Positions 49,761-60,261 are shown, counted from the stretch's first letter. The stretch is DNA of 64,000 nt from Casimicrobiaceae bacterium (GCA_036505865.1 DASXSP010000002.1:6745-70744); one strand, 5' to 3'. A program made the numbers and translations. The notes: a model not told the origin generated them from the sequence alone.

Positions 49761-51161
<1,401 letters not shown>

Positions 51162-51257
51162 AGGGAACTCCGTGAGAATCTTGCGGTTCAGATTAACAAC
51201 TATCGCATAGGGACAGGTGCGCCAAGAAAATCCATTGAAAACCGGAGCAACACTACG

Positions 51258-52388
51258 ATGCCGCAGCGATCGATAACGCCGTCGCGGGAGGTCACGTTGT
51301 TTTTGTGCGGCGATGTCATGACCGGCCGGGGGATCGATCAAATTCTTGCGCACCCCTGCAACCCGCGTTTGCTGGAGAGCTACTGCCGCTCGGCGCAGGA
51401 CTATGTCGCGTTAGCGGAGCGCGTCGCGGGGCCGATCGTCCGTCCGGTCGATTTCGCGTACATCTGGGGTGATGCGTTGGCGGAACTCGATCGGATGCGC
51501 CCCGCGGCACGGATCATCAATCTCGAGACAGCAGTAACAGTCAGCGAAGACGTGTGGCCGAACAAGACTGTCCACTACCGAATGAATCCAGCGAACGTCG
51601 GCTGCCTGACCATCGCGAAACTGGATTGTTGCGTTCTCGCTAACAACCATGTGATGGACTGGGGATTGTCCGGACTCGCCGAAACGCTCGCTACGCTGCG
51701 GCAGGCGGCGCTGCGCTGTGCGGGCGCCGGTAACGATGAACGCGAGGCGCGAGCGCCCGCCATTATCGAAGTGCCGAACACAGGGCGAATCCTCGTGTTT
51801 GCTTGCGGAACCGCAAGCAGCGGCGTGCCGGTGGGATGGGCCGCGAGTGGCGAACGGCCAGGCGTCAATCTGCTGCGCGATTGTTCACCGCGATCAGTTG
51901 AGTCGATCGCACGTCAAGTGGCTTCCTATAAGCGTGACGATGACGTGGTCCTACTATCGATCCACTGGGGAAGCAACTGGGGCTATGACATCCCCGCTGC
52001 GCAGCGTACGTTCGCGCGGGACATGATCGATTCGGCCGGCGTTGACGTCGTGCATGGCCACTCGTCGCACCACGTCAAAGGCATCGAGGTTTATCGCGAC
52101 AAGCTGATTCTCTACGGATGCGGCGATTTCATCGATGATTACGAAGGCATTCAGGGCTACGAAATTTTCCGCGCCGACCTAGGGCTCATGTACTTTCCGA
52201 CGATCGACGTCGCAACGGGACGATTGCGAAGCGTGCGAATGATGCCCACGCGCACGTCGTGCTTGCGCGTCAATCGCGCCGACGAAAGAGCGGCGGAGAT
52301 CCTGACGACAACGCTCAATCGCGAAGGCAAGCCATTCGGAACCGCCGTCGAACGACAGTCCGACAACGCGCTTGCGCTTCAATGGTGA
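51258..52388 (+). CDS. CapA-family metallophosphatase-fold protein
   Basis: [47 protein letters not shown]. Confidence 0.9.
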
Positions 52389-52510
52389 TGTCGCGTCAAT
52401 GCGACGTGTTGCGCCGGTCCGACGACTGTCGACCGGCTGTCGCCAATTAACGCTTCGCTGCGCTCGCGCGTGATACGCTGCCGGCGCCCTCAGAGGCGTA
52501 GGGAGACGCT

Positions 52511-54460
52511 GTGCATAATTCAATGCGGTTCGTGCTCGCGCGGTCCACGTTCGCGCGACGGTGCGTGTTCATTGCTCTAGCGCTGTCGTGCACATGCGCT
52601 CTATCGGCGCCAAACCGCGCGGCCTGCGAAGCAGCCGACAGAACGATACGCGCAGCCACGCCCTTGTCGCAATGTCGCACGCCGAGCGGCGACGTTGTGA
52701 TCGGCAGCGGCAATTGCGTGAACGTGTTCGTCGATCAATCGTATACGGGGAAAGACTCGGCGCTCGGTGCGGTGACGATCAACGCGGGCGGTTCGCTGTT
52801 CGTGCCCGACGCATCGGTCGAAATCGAGGCGAAGTCGATCATCGTCGTCGGTGTGCCTGGCAACGGGCCCGCTGCGCAGGCGCTCTTGCAAATCGGCACC
52901 GCAGCGTGTCCGATCGGTACGCTTTCTCCGGAAAATCACGTGACGCTGCGTCTTTTGGGCGAGCGCCCCGCCGCGACGAAGATCCATCAACACGATCACA
53001 AATCGGGCGACGACTGCACGACGATCGACAAAGGCATCGGCGTCGGCGTGAATGGACAGCTTCGCCTTTTCGGCGCACGCGGCGTCCCGCCCGAAGGCTA
53101 TAGCTGGGCCGCATTGTCGCGCCCAGCGGGGCCGATCGCGTATCAAGTCCGCGACAACCGCAATCCGGACGCTCATCCGGAAAAGATCGGTGCGCCGGTT
53201 CCCCACGGCGGCGAACTCACGCTCAATGTCGAGCACGACGTGACGAAAGGTGGCAATCCCTGGAAGCCGGGCGATTGGATCGTCGTGGGCACCACGAGCT
53301 TTTCCCCGTTCGAATCCGAGTTCGTCCAGATCCAGAATGTCGTCAAGGAAGAGCACGGCAGCCGCATCGTGCTGAGCGCGGCCACGCCGTTGCGCCACTA
53401 CCATTTCGGCGGTCCGGATCCCGGTCCGGCGCATGACATCGGCTCGACGCCTGGAGCGGCTTCGCGCAGCTTTAACCTTTCCCAATCGCACAACTTCGGC
53501 GTCGATGAACGCGCCGAAGTCGGACTGATCAGCCGCAACATCCAGCTGACCGCGGCAACACCGAAGATCGCGACGCCCGGCGATTCCTCTCTGCATTGGG
53601 GCGGTGAGATGCGCTTTTGCAAGGGCTACGACGAAGTCAGCGTGCAAGGTGTCGAGCTCGAGAAATTCGGCAAGGAGAATCTCGGGAGCTATCCGATCCA
53701 CTTTCATCTGGCCAACGCCTCGAAGTGGACGCCCGGCACGCTGCCTGCGCCGCCGACGGGCCGGCACCTGATCGACGCGAACTCAATCCATCACACGTAC
53801 AACAAATGCGCGACGATTCATTCGACGTCGGACATCACGCTGTCGAACAATGTTTGCGCACGGATCACCGGTCACATGTTCTATCAGGAGATCGGTGACG
53901 AATTCAGCTCCTCGTTCAAGAACAATTTGGGCCTCGGGATCATGCTGAACGGCTTCGGCCTCGCAGCGAATGTGCGCCGCACGCCCGACAATCTGGTGAT
54001 GAACTACTGGGAAGGTGACTACCTGGGCCGCGCGATCGATTTCGACGGGCTCAAAGTCGCGAACACCGACAACGGCACGAACCCGGTAATAGGACAGTGT
54101 TACTCGAAAAATCCAAATGCGGGTGGTCTCGAAGGTGCGGTCGCCACCTCCGGCGCTTCGTGTCCAGCCGGCAAGATCCTCTTCGAGCCACCCACGGGAT
54201 TCTGGATCGTCAATCCGACGGCGATGCTCGAGGGCAACTCGGTGGGCGGATGCCAAGGTCTCGGTAAGGGATACTGGTACGTCGCGCCGACGAAGACACC
54301 CGGCGATGCGCGTTTCGCGCTCAAGTTCCAGCCGGTCGGGCGCTTCGTCAACAATCGCGTGCACAGCTGTTACGACGGAATTTTCGGCGAAACCGATGGG
54401 GGGTGGTCACCGAGCAACTCCAGCCGAAAGTCGACGGCGATAACATCGCATTCAACTTGA
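52511..54460 (+). CDS. G8-domain CEMIP/TMEM2-like protein, N-terminal half (frameshifted gene)
   Basis: Signal-like N-terminus; G8 domain; WKPGDWIVV, RAEVGLISRNI, GSYPIHFH, SIHHTYNKCATIH, TGFWIVNP, FVNNRVHS are collinear with CEMIP/TMEM2 as recalled. Confidence 0.82.
   Translation: MHNSMRFVLARSTFARRCVFIALALSCTCALSAPNRAACEAADRTIRAATPLSQCRTPSGDVVIGSGNCVNVFVDQSYTGKDSALGAVTINAGGSLFVPDASVEIEAKSIIVVGVPGNGPAAQALLQIGTAACPIGTLSPENHVTLRLLGERPAATKIHQHDHKSGDDCTTIDKGIGVGVNGQLRLFGARGVPPEGYSWAALSRPAGPIAYQVRDNRNPDAHPEKIGAPVPHGGELTLNVEHDVTKGGNPWKPGDWIVVGTTSFSPFESEFVQIQNVVKEEHGSRIVLSAATPLRHYHFGGPDPGPAHDIGSTPGAASRSFNLSQSHNFGVDERAEVGLISRNIQLTAATPKIATPGDSSLHWGGEMRFCKGYDEVSVQGVELEKFGKENLGSYPIHFHLANASKWTPGTLPAPPTGRHLIDANSIHHTYNKCATIHSTSDITLSNNVCARITGHMFYQEIGDEFSSSFKNNLGLGIMLNGFGLAANVRRTPDNLVMNYWEGDYLGRAIDFDGLKVANTDNGTNPVIGQCYSKNPNAGGLEGAVATSGASCPAGKILFEPPTGFWIVNPTAMLEGNSVGGCQGLGKGYWYVAPTKTPGDARFALKFQPVGRFVNNRVHSCYDGIFGETDGGWSPSNSSRKSTAITSHST
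54398..54403 (+). other. G6 homopolymer at the frameshift junction
   Basis: gat GGGGGG tggtc; G7 or G4 would fuse the two ORFs into one frame. Confidence 0.85.
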
Positions 54461-56568
54461 TCGCGCGCTTCGACGGCTTCACCGCCACGCGGATTCGCAA
54501 TCGCGGCGTGTGGATGCGCGGACCGTGGTTCGTATTCGACAATGCACGAGCCGCTACGAGTCGCGAGGCGATTACGATGGTGACCGCCGGAGGCCTTGAT
54601 GGCAGCTCGCCCGCGTTTTGGGGCTTGCTCAAAAATTCAGTCGTCGTCGGGCTCTCGAAGAACAACGTCGACCGCTGGGGACCGTGTCCGGAGCCCACGG
54701 CGCAGGAAGGGCCGGGTTGTGTCGATCGGAATACGGAAGCTGCCGATCTATTCGAGAAAAGCTATCCAAGTCCGGCGTGGAACTTCGCCGGCTTTTATAT
54801 CTATGACGGCCCCGTGCGAATCCACGACACGCGATTCGTCAACTTCCGCCACGACATTACGCCCTTGCTCACCGTGACCGACGCGGCGTTCCTCCAAAGC
54901 TTCAAGTCCTACTACTCGGCGAGCGTCTACGAAGGCGACGCCGCACTGGGATGGTTCCAAAACAACCAGAGCGCGTATCCGACGACGACCGAGGTCCGTG
55001 GGCTCACCTTCGAGGGCACGAACCTCCGTCACCAGGTCTTTACCGACAAAGTCAATTTCGGAAACTTCGATGATGGCGACAAGAACACCGCTGTCATCGA
55101 TCGAGACGGTTCGCTCACCGGGTATCGCGTCGTCGATGCCAGCGGCTTGCAAGCCAAGCACCGTCATGCAGTCTCGCTCAATAACTTGCCGTTCAATGCG
55201 GTCGCCAACGCCGCCGACGAATGCGCATCGACGGGCGCACAGGATGCGGCGGCCGAGGATCGGCCTACATCGTTGATCTCGCCGGGCGATCTGGCGACGC
55301 TCGAGTTCGGCGCGCTCCTACCACCTGACGGCGTCGTTACGGCTGCAACGGGGTCCGACCCGAACATGACGCAGCTGATGACGTTCACGCAGGACGTCAA
55401 GAATCGGTTCGACAAGCACGCGTCGATGACGCTGCACAGCCGCAACAATCAAGGGATTTGGGAGCCCAAGATCCATGGCGGTCGCGGCTACACGGTGTCG
55501 GTCGCATCGGCAGCCGCCAGCAATCCTGGACAAGCGGGACCGGTGGGCATGCCTCGCTACACCAACATCGGGTTGACCGACGTCGTCAAGCCGGACATCG
55601 CAAGCAAGCCGTTCTCCGCGCGAATCGGCGTGTGCTACACGAATGTCGGCGGGACGCATCCCCCGGCGGAATTCGCGATCTTGCGCGGCTTCAAGTCATG
55701 GGGCGGCAACGCGGTCAACTACAACGATCCCACATTGCGGAAATCGTTCAACCGGCTCGTCAATCTCTACAACGGGCAAACGTGCCATAACCTGGACTCG
55801 CAGTCGAATCGCGTGCGAACACCCGGTCAGGACAACACCGATCCGATGAAAGGCTGTCCGGCCGACGGCGTCCTGCCGTTGGAAAGCGCCGCAAGTTGTA
55901 CGGCGGCGGGTGGCAAGCCGGCGCGATCGCGAGCCGACCTTCCGCAGGACGACGCCTGCATCTTCGAAACGCGCGCGCTCAAGAAAGCAGAAAATCTGGC
56001 GGAGTTGACCGATCCGGTCAGTGGCGCGCCCGTCGACCTGTACAAGTATTACTACGATGCGAAAAGCGGGATGCTTTCCTTCTATGTCGTGCAGGACATT
56101 CCCAATGCGCAGGCCGCGTCGCCGCACGGAAGCTGCCGCGGCCGGCCCGACGACGATCCGGCCTGTCCGAATCCGGCCGATCCGATCTATCCCGAAAGCT
56201 ACTACGGATGTCCGGCGCAGGGCTGCATCACCTACACGGTGCGTATTGTTGGAGGCGATTACACGCCAGGGGCATCGGCGTGCGGTGACGACGGCGATCC
56301 GTCGAGGATGACAGATGCGACCGCGATCTACCGCTATAAGCGCGATGAACAGGGCCGCGGCATTTATGAACTCGATCCGCCGAAAGACGAGTTCCAGCTC
56401 GCGTATGTTCCGTCTCCGTCGAGTCCACACGAAGCGGTTCGACGTGGCGACCGCGTCGACCCGATGCCGACGGTCAGCTCGAAGGGCTTCGACCACGTGA
56501 AGGCCAAATACGCACCGTATTGCGCGGGTCAGCCGCCCACGCCCGGCGGCGGGCGCACCGGCGAATAG
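54403..56568 (+). CDS. CEMIP/TMEM2-like protein, C-terminal half
   Basis: RNRGVWMRG, LKNSVVVG, GFYIYDGPV, DGDKN...DGSLTGY continue the CEMIP/TMEM2 alignment; no credible independent RBS or signal peptide. Confidence 0.82.
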   Translation: MVTEQLQPKVDGDNIAFNLIARFDGFTATRIRNRGVWMRGPWFVFDNARAATSREAITMVTAGGLDGSSPAFWGLLKNSVVVGLSKNNVDRWGPCPEPTAQEGPGCVDRNTEAADLFEKSYPSPAWNFAGFYIYDGPVRIHDTRFVNFRHDITPLLTVTDAAFLQSFKSYYSASVYEGDAALGWFQNNQSAYPTTTEVRGLTFEGTNLRHQVFTDKVNFGNFDDGDKNTAVIDRDGSLTGYRVVDASGLQAKHRHAVSLNNLPFNAVANAADECASTGAQDAAAEDRPTSLISPGDLATLEFGALLPPDGVVTAATGSDPNMTQLMTFTQDVKNRFDKHASMTLHSRNNQGIWEPKIHGGRGYTVSVASAAASNPGQAGPVGMPRYTNIGLTDVVKPDIASKPFSARIGVCYTNVGGTHPPAEFAILRGFKSWGGNAVNYNDPTLRKSFNRLVNLYNGQTCHNLDSQSNRVRTPGQDNTDPMKGCPADGVLPLESAASCTAAGGKPARSRADLPQDDACIFETRALKKAENLAELTDPVSGAPVDLYKYYYDAKSGMLSFYVVQDIPNAQAASPHGSCRGRPDDDPACPNPADPIYPESYYGCPAQGCITYTVRIVGGDYTPGASACGDDGDPSRMTDATAIYRYKRDEQGRGIYELDPPKDEFQLAYVPSPSSPHEAVRRGDRVDPMPTVSSKGFDHVKAKYAPYCAGQPPTPGGGRTGE

Positions 56569-56574
56569 CGCCCA

Positions 56575-58005
56575 TCAGCCTTTGATACAAACGAGCGGCT
56601 CCAGCCGCGCAACTTTATGCGCGAGGTGCGCGCGGTGCGCGGCCTCGACAACCGCCGAAACATCCTTGTAAGCGCCGGGGGCTTCTTCGGCGACGCCGCG
56701 CATCGACGCGCTTCGAATCAGAATGCCCCGACTTGCAAGCTCGTCGACGACTTCGCGGCCGTGCCAATGGCGCTTGGCCTCGTTCCGACTCATCTCGCGA
56801 CCTGCCCCGTGACACGCCGAGGCGAACGCTTCGCTCATGCCGCGTTCTGTTCCGACGAGTACGTACGACGCCGTCCCCATGCTGCCGCCGATCAGGACCG
56901 GTTGGCCGATTTCGAAAAACTCCGCCGGAAGATCCGGATGGCGCGGGCCGAACGCGCGCGTCGCGCCCTTGCGATGCACGTACAGTTCCGCTTCGCGGCC
57001 GTCGATCCGATGTTTCTCGACCTTGCACGTATTGTGCGAAACGTCGTAGAGCAATGTAAGCGTTGCGCCGGGCAGGACAGCGTGAAACGCCTCGCGCGTC
57101 ATCTGCGTGAGAATTTCGCGGTTGGCCAACGCGCAGTTGATTGCCGCACGCATCGCGCCAAGATAGCGCTGCCCCAATGGCGAACGCACAGGCGCGCAGG
57201 CGAGCTCGCGATCGGTGACCGTTACGCCCGCAGCGTTCGCCGCGATCGTCATCTCGCGCAAAAACTCTGTGCCGATCTGATGACCGAGCCCGCGCGAGCC
57301 GCAGTGCACGCTGACGACAACGTCGCCGTTACGTAGCCCGAACGCGTTCGCGGCTGCGTCATCGTACGTTTCGACGACGTGCTGCACTTCGAGATAGTGA
57401 TTGCCCGAACCAAGCGTCCCCATCGCGTCGCGCTGCCGAAGTTTTGCGGCTTCGGACACCGCTGCCGGATCCGCGCCGGCCGCCATTCCGCCCTCCTCGA
57501 TTCGCGCCAGATCTTCGCGCTGCCCGTAGCCGTAATCGACCGCCCAGCGCGCGCCGCCGCGAAGCATCGCGTCCATCTCGTTCGGGGAGAGTTGCAACGC
57601 GCCTGTGCTGCCCACGCCCGCCGGAATGCGTTTGAACAGCGTATCGGCGAGCTGATGCTTCGCGGGCTCGATGTCGGCGCGTTTAAGACCGGTCAGCAAC
57701 GTCCGCACACCGCATGAGATATCGAACCCCACGCCACCGGCGGATACCACGCCGCCGTCATCGGGATCAAAGGCGGCGACACCGCCGATGGGAAATCCGT
57801 ATCCCCAATGTGCGTCGGGCATGGCGAACGAGCCTTTGACAATGCCGGGAAGCGCGGCCACATTGGTGATCTGCCCCAACACTTTGTCGTCCATCGCCTG
57901 GAGCAATTCTTCGTCGGCGAAAATGACGCCAGGCACTCGCATCGCGCCCGTTTGCGCGAGCTGCCATTGGTAATCGCTGATACGTTGCAATCGACTTGGA
58001 TCCAT
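56575..58005 (-). CDS. rtcB: RtcB RNA ligase (archaeal/eukaryote-like long subtype)
   Basis: MPDAHWGYGFPIGG, VGFDISCG, GTLGSGNHY, HCGSRGLGH, YDVSHN, HRKGATR, SACHGAGR, EEAPGAYKD. Confidence 0.96.
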   Translation of the reverse strand: MDPSRLQRISDYQWQLAQTGAMRVPGVIFADEELLQAMDDKVLGQITNVAALPGIVKGSFAMPDAHWGYGFPIGGVAAFDPDDGGVVSAGGVGFDISCGVRTLLTGLKRADIEPAKHQLADTLFKRIPAGVGSTGALQLSPNEMDAMLRGGARWAVDYGYGQREDLARIEEGGMAAGADPAAVSEAAKLRQRDAMGTLGSGNHYLEVQHVVETYDDAAANAFGLRNGDVVVSVHCGSRGLGHQIGTEFLREMTIAANAAGVTVTDRELACAPVRSPLGQRYLGAMRAAINCALANREILTQMTREAFHAVLPGATLTLLYDVSHNTCKVEKHRIDGREAELYVHRKGATRAFGPRHPDLPAEFFEIGQPVLIGGSMGTASYVLVGTERGMSEAFASACHGAGREMSRNEAKRHWHGREVVDELASRGILIRSASMRGVAEEAPGAYKDVSAVVEAAHRAHLAHKVARLEPLVCIKG

Positions 58006-58037
58006 TCTTCAGCTTTAACCGAGTGGCAAACGATGCC

Positions 58038-58451
58038 TCACACGTCGACAACGCATTGCGCGAGCCACATGCCATCGTCGCGCCGAGTCATCGATAACTG
58101 GGAGTACGTCGCGGCTTTGACTTCGACTAACGGCTCATGGCGTTCGCGATCGACGGCTTCGCCCCATGCTTTCGCTTCCAGCGCATGGTCGTGAAGCGCG
58201 ACGGTGAAACGGCCGAACAACAGATTGCGCGTCGCCATTTCGTAGATCAGTGCATTCAACCAGTCGATGAGCAGCAGTTCGTCATCCGGCGCGTCACGGC
58301 GAATCTCCACGAGCGTATCGGCGCGAACATGTAGCGGATCGGTGACGACCGCTGTCAACGCAAGCGCGACTTGCTCAAAGGCATCCTCGCGCGAAGCGCC
58401 GAGTCCGCGAACCCCGATATCGGCACCATGCCTAAAGTGTTCCCAGGGCAT
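58038..58451 (-). CDS. Archease
   Basis: [37 protein letters not shown]. Confidence 0.95.
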
Positions 58452-58457
58452 TATTAC

Positions 58458-58472
58458 TTTGACAGCGTCAAA
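58458..58472. promoter_or_regulatory. Perfect palindrome TTTGAC-N3-GTCAAA in the archease/SMUG1 divergent region
   Basis: tttgacagcgtcaaa, 6 nt from the archease ATG. Confidence 0.5.
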
Positions 58473-58501
58473 CCATGGATATTTGCGGGGCATTCGACGC
58501 C

Positions 58502-59227
58502 ATGGCGACAGAACCGGCATTGGTTGGCATCGCGGGCCGTTTGCGGGACGATCTTTCGGAGCTCCGGTTCGGAGGATTGGTCGATCACGTTTACAACCCG
58601 CTTGTGTACGCATGGGCACCGCACCGTGAGTACCTGGAGCGCTACGGCCGCGACCCGCGTAGCGTGCTGCTCGTCGGCATGAACGCCGGCTACTACGGGA
58701 TGGTGCAAAGCGGCGTTCCTTTCGGCGACGTCGAGATGGTCCGCGATTGGCTCGCGATTGACGGACCCGTCGAGCGGCCGAAAGACGAACACCCGAAGCG
58801 GCCGGTAGAAGGCTTTGCGTGCCGGCGTCGTGAGATCAGCGGACAGCGCCTATGGGGATGGGCACGCGATACGTTTCGCACGCCGAAGCGATTCTTCGCA
58901 CGCTTTTTCGTCATCAATTATTGTCCGCTCTGCTTCCTCGCCAAAAGCGGCGCAAACGTTGCGCTCGATAAGCTTCCGGCCGCGTCACGCAAACATTTGC
59001 TCGCCGCGTGCGACCGAGCGATCAACGACGCCGCCGATGCACTGTCGATTCGCTACGCGATCGGCCTTGGCCGCTTCGCCGCGCAAAGGGTCGCGACGAT
59101 ACTACGCGACAAGGTGGTCTGCGGCGCCGCACCGCATCCGAGTCCGGCGAATGCGAGTGTGGGACTCAACTGGCCCCACGAGATGAACCGGGCGCTCGCC
59201 ATCCTGGGCATTCGCGTTCGCGACTAG
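58502..59227 (+). CDS. SMUG1-family uracil-DNA glycosylase
   Basis: [61 protein letters not shown]. Confidence 0.92.
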
Positions 59228-59253
59228 GCATGGCGCGCGCTTCGGGCGCGAGC

Positions 59254-60261
59254 CTAGAGCTTATTAGGGTCGAATCCCGTTTCGTCGTAGATCGACTTCA
59301 GCAGATCCTTGCCGACTCTATCTCCCATTTCCACGTGGACCTTCATCAGTACTTTTTTCCATGTCTTTCGTTCATCCGCCGACAGCGTCACGATCTCTGT
59401 TTTGCCGGCGCGGCGTATCCCTTCCAACGCGTCGTCGTTCTCTTGCTTCGCGATTCGGTTGAAATAATCGGTCGTTTCCTTCATTGCCCCTTCGAGCGTC
59501 GCCTGAACATTCGGAGGCAGACCATCCCAGAATTTCTTGTTTGTGATCACCGCGTAGCCGTGATACCCGTGGTCTGACATCGTCAGATATTTCTGCACCT
59601 CGAAGAGCTTTGACTGGAACACATTCGACGTGGGATTTTCCTGACCGTCGACGACGCCCGTCTGCAACGCCTGGTACACCTCGCCGAATCCCATCACCTG
59701 CGGAATTGCGCCGAGCGCGCGCATTTGCGCATCGATTACCTTTGACGACTGAATACGGATTTTTTGGCCCTTGAAGTCCTCGGGCTTTCGGATGGGCTTG
59801 TTGGAGGTCATCTCCTTGAAGCCGTTGTCCCAGAACGCCAGATCGACAATTCCCTTGCTCTCCAGCATCTTGAGCATCCGCTTGCCGATTGCGCCCTGCG
59901 TCACTCGATGCTCGTCGTCGATCGTGTCAAAGAGAAACGGAAAATCCAGCACTTCAAACTCGCGCACGCCCATCGGACCGAATTTACCCGGCGTCGGCGC
60001 GAGCATCTGGACGGAGCCAAGTTGCAGCGCCTCGACTTCTTCGCCATCCTTGAACAACACGCTGTTGTGGTAGACCTCGACTTTGACCGCACCCTTGGTG
60101 CGCTCTTCGACCAATCGCTTGAAATATTCGGCCGCTTTGCCCTTCGGCGCGTCGCTCGCGACGACGTGGCTGAACTTGATGACAATCGGCTGTTGGGCAA
60201 TGGCCAAGGTACTTGCGATCGAAACTCCAAGCGCAAACAAGGCAACGTAGATCGCTTTCAT
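59254..60261 (-). CDS. dctP: TRAP transporter substrate-binding protein
   Basis: IKFSHVVASDAPKGK, WDNGFK, KIRIQSS, LQTGVVDGQEN. Confidence 0.93.
   Translation of the reverse strand: MKAIYVALFALGVSIASTLAIAQQPIVIKFSHVVASDAPKGKAAEYFKRLVEERTKGAVKVEVYHNSVLFKDGEEVEALQLGSVQMLAPTPGKFGPMGVREFEVLDFPFLFDTIDDEHRVTQGAIGKRMLKMLESKGIVDLAFWDNGFKEMTSNKPIRKPEDFKGQKIRIQSSKVIDAQMRALGAIPQVMGFGEVYQALQTGVVDGQENPTSNVFQSKLFEVQKYLTMSDHGYHGYAVITNKKFWDGLPPNVQATLEGAMKETTDYFNRIAKQENDDALEGIRRAGKTEIVTLSADERKTWKKVLMKVHVEMGDRVGKDLLKSIYDETGFDPNKL

Follow-up and report, generated by a model that had tools for sequence, protein, structure and literature searches.

A frameshifted gene of Casimicrobiaceae encodes a bacterial relative of the animal TMEM2/CEMIP core

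Here, we describe a gene at positions 52511-56568 of a 64,000-nucleotide stretch of DNA (the window) from a Casimicrobiaceae bacterium (GCA_036505865.1, DASXSP010000002.1:6745-70744), which encodes, across a single frameshift, a homologue of the core of the animal proteins TMEM2 and CEMIP, i.e., a G8-capped beta-helix, a beta-sandwich of small size, and, by a partial match, part of domain X. The gene is a new and apparently inactivated member of an already catalogued bacterial family, located in the Casimicrobiaceae (Burkholderiales). With good confidence in the reading as a whole, we regard it as a single gene of this family that was gained specifically in this lineage, is interrupted by the lack of one G, and encodes a putatively exported beta-helix protein that would act on glycans. 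The initial annotation had reported two open reading frames (ORFs) with CEMIP/TMEM2 motifs in a fixed order, a Cys-rich character, and a signal-like N-terminus. This observation is confirmed throughout by the sequence, by Pfam and by alignment to the TMEM2 ectodomain (PDB 8c6i_A), and the similarity to TMEM2 is far above chance.

Results

The TMEM2 ectodomain was the sole match among all PDB sequences. ORF1 alone aligned to 8c6i_A with an E-value of 2.3e-24, the read-through protein formed by both ORFs with 8.3e-26 (single-sequence phmmer), and a profile of 35 full-length bacterial relatives with 2.5e-62 in five collinear blocks. These blocks comprise the G8 domain (profile positions 53-175, TMEM2 chain 45-155), a segment with WKPGD, GVDERAEVG, YPIHFH, SIHH..C.T.H, and GH.F (213-436, TMEM2 331-541), a segment with FWI, NNRVHS, G.W.RG, and YDGP (523-743, TMEM2 580-809), the short DGDKN..DGSxTGY block (817-836, TMEM2 861-880), and a C-terminal block with KYFYD..TGMLFFY (1108-1214, TMEM2 1015-1140). 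The profile match to the domain X block is only partial (domain E-value 0.008).

Structural comparison extended this similarity to both halves of the protein, which were modeled separately with AlphaFold2 from an 82-sequence alignment each (the N-terminal model covers 52523-54403). The N-terminal half reached a predicted local distance difference test score (pLDDT) of 89.6 and a predicted template modeling score (pTM) of 0.91, the C-terminal half 90.1 and 0.92. In Foldseek searches against PDB, a check that the initial annotation had proposed, TMEM2 8c6i_A was the first match of the N-terminal half (E 1.2e-18, TMq 0.57) and the sole significant match of the C-terminal half (E 1.7e-18, TMq 0.48). 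The next matches of the N-terminal half were GH110 galactosidases, a Klebsiella K1 capsule lyase, and phage depolymerases (E 2e-5 to 1e-3). Such beta-helix glycan enzymes, among them GH110 alpha-galactosidases, the Klebsiella K1 capsule lyase, phage capsule depolymerases, and chondroitinase B, have the right-handed parallel beta-helix in common with the window protein, but the TM-scores (0.11-0.17), the identities (8-12%), and significance values about 13 orders of magnitude worse than for TMEM2 set them apart, and no catalytic motif common to them and the window protein was identified.

In TMEM2 (PDB 8C6I) and CEMIP (KIAA1199/HYBID), as in the window protein, G8 is continuous with a right-handed parallel beta-helix and a beta-sandwich carries WKPGD. 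The likeness to TMEM2 is collinear over GVD-RAEVG-RNI, YPxHFH, SIHH..C.T.H, GH.F, FWI, NNRVHS, YDGP, DGDKN..DGSxTGY, and, by a partial match, part of domain X, at an identity of 14-18% over the structural alignment. The structure of TMEM2 has been described as a beta-helix that starts with G8, after which come domain X, the second lectin-like domain, and a helix at the terminus (PMC10206443). Not all of this is present in the bacterial family. The interval from G8 to WKPGD spans 38 profile positions as compared to 176 residues in TMEM2, and lectin-like domain 1 is therefore missing. The TMEM2 chain from about 1140 to 1301, i.e., lectin-like domain 2, has no aligned counterpart, with about 70 profile positions left past the last common block, and Pfam models for lectin and GG domains matched none of the 35 members (E ≤ 0.01) nor P0067 (E ≤ 10). 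While the assignment as a CEMIP/TMEM2 homologue thus holds for a collinear core and, by structure, for both halves, the term 'full-length' used in the initial annotation was an overstatement, because the two GG lectin-like domains, by which CEMIP/TMEM2 are defined, are without counterpart. Their absence matters because the residues whose substitution is reported to abolish TMEM2 activity sit there; the substitutions concerned (R265C, D273N, and D286N) all fall in lectin-like domain 1 (PMC10206443), which carries R187 in CEMIP, and the window protein has no counterpart of R265, D273, and D286. It further differs from TMEM2 in the lack of a transmembrane anchor, in a Cys-rich domain X region that is about 150 amino acids longer, and in its origin from a soil bacterium without known source of hyaluronan.

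A module of similarly reduced composition is known from fibrocystin (PKHD1) and PKHD1L1. The TMEM2H module of fibrocystin consists of G8, beta-helix, and domain X (bioRxiv 10.64898/2026.10.19.758525), with a parallel beta-helix and no GG lectin domains. The window protein has the parts of TMEM2H in the same order and likewise no GG domains, a likeness that we draw from the description of the fibrocystin modules. Unlike the bacterial protein, these modules are embedded in a 4,074-amino-acid receptor-like protein with IPT, PA14, and SEA domains.

The gene, all features of which lie on the + strand, consists of two overlapping ORFs. ORF1 (52511-54460) has 649 codons and starts with GTG at 52511; codons 1-631, up to 54403, represent the genuine N-terminal half, and codons 632-649 are an out-of-frame read-on to the stop. 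ORF2 (54403-56568; 721 codons plus stop) is in the -1 frame relative to ORF1 and encodes the end of the beta-helix and the Cys-rich, domain-X-like region. Both ORFs overlap at a GGGGGG run (54398-54403), which is the sole break in the gene. The frame would be restored either by a seventh G or by a -1 slip in which base 54403 is read in both frames, and the resulting 1,352-amino-acid protein contains 29 Cys, 26 of them in the mature part. The read-through junction, in which NNRVHSCYDGIFGETDGG is directly followed by VVTEQLQPKVDGDN, aligns without gap to 34 uninterrupted homologues; ORF1 and ORF2 are therefore one gene with a single frameshift. The gene is preceded by an untranslated region with a ribosome-binding site (52389-52510), the left edge of the lineage-specific segment described below. 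A GGAG at 52500-52503 lies 7 nt ahead of the GTG start, homologue P0003 begins at the same place, and the final ~90 nt of this leader are about 95% identical to the related contig L016. Residues 1-33 (52511-52609; ending in CVFIALALSCTCALSA) form a predicted Sec signal peptide with a basic n-region, a hydrophobic core, and a terminal ..ALSA. In the AlphaFold2 model the N-terminus is helical with low pLDDT, which fits a signal-like sequence; the predicted export signal of the read-through protein is thus read from features of sequence and model.

In the numbering of the fused protein, the G8 domain occupies residues 59-190 (52685-53080; Pfam PF10162, E 7.4e-07, 29.5 bits with the cut-off at 22.9). 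It caps the beta-helix N-terminally, also providing its first turns, and corresponds to TMEM2 chain 45-155 in the profile alignment. It is followed by the small beta-sandwich insert (53198-53380; model strands 233-284) with WKPGD at residues 251-255. The CEMIP-type parallel beta-helix (53498-54909; residues ~330-800) spans the frameshift, and Pfam PF24606 (CEMIP_beta-hel) scores 133 bits in the N-terminal half alone, as compared to a cut-off of 27.3. Along the helix lie RAEVG..RNI (residues 334-344), YPIHFH (394-399), SIHH..CxTxH (425-437), FWI (564-566), NNRVHS (614-619), GVWMRG (666-671), and YDGP (765-768). The DGDK..DGSLTGY block (residues 855-872; 55072-55125), with the sequence DGDKNTAVIDRDGSLTGY, aligns to DGDKNSIFHDIDGSVTGY at TMEM2 chain 861-880 and is invariant across the family. 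Every one of these motifs aligns to the same motif of 8c6i_A, in order. Beta-helix residues kept in TMEM2 include D332, R334, E336, H397, H399, H427, H437, and H455, and E460, N472, W565, H618, R670, Y765, and D766 are likewise common to both proteins. The C-terminal beta-sandwich region (55147-56565; residues ~880-1352) is domain-X-like and carries a bacterial-specific, Cys-rich expansion of about 150 amino acids. Pfam gave no match for the C-terminal half alone (E ≤ 10) and NCBIfam none for either half; matches to the Pfam model CEMIP_X were weak (E 0.0016-0.19), with a single one of the 35 aligned relatives reaching E ≤ 0.01.

With the C-terminal half as query, a word-indexed search returned at least 254 relatives, nearly all of 1,250-1,500 amino acids, and an exhaustive phmmer search of 1.84 billion representatives yielded 247 clusters at 50% identity, so that this long-type family is real but small. 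Its members carry the names 'G8 domain-containing protein' or 'hypothetical protein' where a name is given, and occur in Casimicrobiaceae, Piscinibacter, Variovorax, Steroidobacteraceae, NC10, Binataceae, Gemmatimonadales, and others; the cultured Piscinibacter sp. XHJ-5 has an intact orthologue of 1,364 amino acids (P0094). The best relatives (P0068-P0071) are 66-68% identical over the whole length and derive from metagenome-assembled genomes (MAGs) of Casimicrobiaceae. G8 and CEMIP_beta-hel were present in all 35 aligned members, in which about 270 positions (271 counted), including ~20 Cys, are near-invariant although the members are only 41-68% identical. The window protein keeps 264 of these 271 positions, including all invariant ones. 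We found no paper on bacterial G8/CEMIP-like proteins in the literature.

A second, shorter bacterial type is nearer to the animal proteins. When 301 genomes from the same phylum were scanned, the CEMIP beta-helix family occurred in three, the window's own included; the other two (G227 and G284) each encode several proteins of 860-940 amino acids with Pfam CEMIP_beta-hel scores of 270-286 bits. The protein encoded at L007:1954-4530 in genome G227 (282 bits) matched TMEM2 with a phmmer E-value of 2.6e-93 over 540 residues, with long identical stretches such as GHCFFLEDGIE. Short-type proteins and the window's family, which are 25-29% identical, both appear to be exported and combine G8 with the CEMIP beta-helix without lectin domain 1. 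However, the short type has no long Cys-rich C-terminus and is nearer to TMEM2 (2.6e-93 and 282 bits versus 8e-26 and 131-133 bits), a nearness judged from pairwise scores with the aligned parts of 8c6i_A as the sole animal sequence. Since the short type matches TMEM2 far better, the window protein belongs to a divergent 'long' branch, and as a bacterial model of the animal proteins the short type would be preferable. Further short-type copies are located at G227:C2:571071-571706, G227:C3:434243-434893, and G284:C4/C5.

Some long-type relatives are associated with an outer-membrane beta-barrel. In genome G017 of the same genus, a BBP7 barrel gene (L003:10762-11892, - strand) is located immediately upstream of the CEMIP-like gene (L003:6609-10883, - strand) in the same orientation, and the metagenomic P0178 (L009:6001-9822) was called as one 1,273-amino-acid product combining BBP7 with the CEMIP beta-helix. 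This adjacency and fusion may hint at outer-membrane anchoring in some lineages.

The CEMIP-like gene is situated between the 3' ends of a CapA-like gene (~51230-52388, + strand; PGA_cap, Pfam PF09587, E 2e-78), which is co-oriented at a distance of 122 bp, and rtcB (56575-58005, - strand), which is followed by a UDG-like gene and a DctP gene. On the other side of the CapA-like gene lies the gene for AsnRS (49761-51161, - strand), a protein of 466 amino acids that is 93-95% identical to Casimicrobiaceae MAG proteins. The interval between RtcB and AsnRS is variable, being empty, filled by CapA only, or filled by CapA and the CEMIP-like gene. In contigs with 93-95% identical AsnRS, RtcB either adjoins AsnRS (L013, L015) or the order is RtcB-CapA-AsnRS (L014), and the CEMIP-like gene is absent from the site in all three. 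DNA alignment to L014, whose CapA-like orthologue has 386 amino acids, showed that homology with the 3' end of the CapA-like gene stops at ~52388 and that the extra segment (~52389-56571) consists of the gene, its 122-nt leader, and almost nothing more. Beyond the site itself, 23 of 24 other genomes of the same genus have no homologue, the exception being 48% identical and located elsewhere, beside a BBP7 barrel gene, and none was found in 16 genomes from other families of the order. The guanine-cytosine content is unremarkable. A cytochrome gene was found neither beside the window's gene nor beside the short-type gene in L007, nor was one adjacent in the further homologue loci inspected. Because the nearest relatives do not carry the gene at the RtcB-AsnRS site, we interpret its presence as a lineage-specific gain at a variable site, with retention as the less likely alternative.

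An orthologue on L016, a metagenome contig from ENA, was informative on the recent history of the gene. L016:1121-2427 matches window 52511-53815 with about 90% nucleotide identity and is also located downstream of a CapA-like gene. It has its own 1-nt deletion at the position that matches window 53576, past which high DNA similarity persists in the original frame; the gene thereby shows a second frameshift, independent of the first. Between both CEMIP-like copies (52511-53815), the ratio of nonsynonymous to synonymous substitution rates (dN/dS) is 0.18 at a dS of 0.41, and it is low also past the L016 frameshift. The low ratio indicates that purifying selection acted on a functional gene until recently. 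In the CapA-like gene next to it (51540-52385), dS between window and L016 is 1.2, about threefold that of the CEMIP-like gene, which suggests that the latter was exchanged between the two lineages more recently than its neighbor.

Discussion

The interrupted gene is most likely a very recent pseudogene or else the product of an isolated base-calling error in this genome, and on balance we lean towards the former, i.e., a real and recent inactivation of the window copy by loss of one G from a run of seven. It is possible, though in our view doubtful, that the organism itself has an intact gene, with the G lacking through an assembly or base-calling error at the homopolymer, or from a minority or majority allele of the sampled population; in that case the full 1,352-amino-acid protein would be produced. 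The run is the sole break in 4 kb, the conserved positions are kept almost completely and the dN/dS is low, as would be expected of an intact gene. However, frame-switch signatures were not enriched at homopolymers of at least six nucleotides genome-wide (0.50% versus 0.56% at random positions), so that the assembly is not generally error-prone at homopolymers, and 54398-54403 was the sole site flanked on either side by 500 or more open codons. The 148 contigs moreover look like a short-read assembly, in which errors at G6 would be uncommon, and the independent deletion in L016 is consistent with the gene decaying in this clade. Phase variation typically targets exported and surface proteins, and the G run could accordingly be a reversible slipped-strand switch or cause -1 slippage of ribosomes or of transcription, with the exported protein being made by only part of the population or in small amounts. 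We regard this as unlikely. Slippage by -1 at the P site on GGG GGG would produce a junction, DGG/VVTEQL, that agrees exactly with the family, and G6 runs are rarer in the window than expected (6 versus ~15), but six or seven G are short for efficient slippage, the closest homologues are uninterrupted and have no run at the site (gac gcc ggc acc gtc in the closest intact one), and the L016 frameshift lies outside any homopolymer. No stimulatory RNA structure was detected 3' of the run, where an 80-nt fold was no better than shuffled sequences (z -0.23); given this and the homologues without run, programmed frameshifting was judged unlikely.

For the intact protein, we propose the following model. 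Having a common origin with the core found in CEMIP, TMEM2, and fibrocystin of animals, it would be exported by Sec and subsequently form disulfides, and it would bind extracytoplasmic polysaccharide along the beta-helix. Cleavage would occur at a polar cluster of D332/R334/E336, H397/H399/H427/H437/H455, E460, H618, R670, and D766, which, judging from the strand pattern, is probably exposed on the helix. An exported polysaccharide-acting enzyme is the likely function by analogy; glycan cleavage is suggested because every structural neighbor other than TMEM2 is a glycan-cleaving beta-helix enzyme. Hyaluronan is an improbable substrate, as the hosts live in soil and freshwater, the lectin domains are missing, and nothing in the context relates to glycosaminoglycans.

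Several points weigh against this interpretation. The enzymatic function is proposed solely from analogy of fold, and even for TMEM2 activity is disputed: one careful study detected no hyaluronidase activity of the purified ectodomain and was unable to assign an active site (PMC10206443), whereas another group reported intrinsic activity (PMC10474455). The activity-abolishing substitutions of TMEM2 all map to a lectin-like domain that the window protein does not have (see above). In a Gram-negative bacterium, a signal peptide leads to the periplasm only, and true secretion beyond it is at most putative. No conserved gene neighborhood points to a substrate. Finally, the window copy deviates at seven of the 271 conserved positions, as compared to zero to three in its closest relatives; four of the seven sit just past the frameshift, and together they hint at relaxed constraint without being decisive.

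A serious rival is an exported beta-helix protein without catalytic role, for example an adhesin, a scaffold of the matrix, or a protein that binds glycans, instead of a depolymerase, an alternative that we consider possible but rather doubtful. It would be in accordance with the TMEM2 ectodomain as found inactive in one study, with fibrocystin, which has two such modules but no known enzymatic activity (bioRxiv 10.64898/2026.10.19.758525), and with the two relatives that adjoin or are fused to a BBP7 barrel, hinting at surface anchoring. On the other hand, the ~270 near-invariant positions, which include the His/Asp/Glu/Arg cluster common with TMEM2, are more typical of a catalytic or metal site, the next-best structural neighbors are all glycan-cleaving enzymes, and intrinsic activity of TMEM2 has been reported, all of which favors the exported polysaccharide-acting enzyme. 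A far-reaching combined proposal, that this cluster is the catalytic and possibly metal-dependent center of the entire G8/beta-helix superfamily and that the G6/G7 run is a reversible on/off switch of a newly acquired, exported glycan-cleaving enzyme, appears quite improbable to us. More improbable still is a joint action with the adjoining CapA-family protein on poly-gamma-glutamate or a capsule polymer, a link at which the initial annotation had hinted by pointing to the co-oriented neighbor. The close spacing and shared orientation of both genes, and the same CapA-then-CEMIP-like order in L016, are what would be expected of partners. Yet a PGA_cap neighbor is absent from all eight other family loci, the CapA-like gene of L014 occupies this site in the absence of a CEMIP-like gene, the contrasting dS values versus L016 indicate differing histories, and neither capB nor capC was found among the genes examined around the locus. 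As the eight loci have no common neighbors, neither with the window nor with each other, CapA is no general partner of the family and the genomic context does not point to a substrate.

What the conserved core does in TMEM2 and CEMIP could be settled with simple bacterial proteins that have retained nothing else. The window copy adds little to this by itself: it is divergent, carries a frameshift, and belongs to a family that Pfam and NCBI already list, and intact bacterial relatives nearer to the animal proteins exist. Its local value is evolutionary, in that it represents a clean single-gene gain at the variable RtcB-AsnRS site that was followed by apparently rapid and repeated inactivation. 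The repeated inactivation suggests that the protein is dispensable or costly in this lineage.

Two minor observations concern the neighboring genes. Mechanically called ORFs for AsnRS (49761-51353, - strand, 530 amino acids) and the CapA-like protein (50883-52388, + strand, 501 amino acids) overlap on opposite strands; since homologues have 466 and about 386 amino acids, respectively, both true starts lie further inside. The gene order DctP - (UDG-like) - archease - RtcB - AsnRS (window 56575-60261) is kept in the related Casimicrobiaceae contigs L013, L014, and L015.

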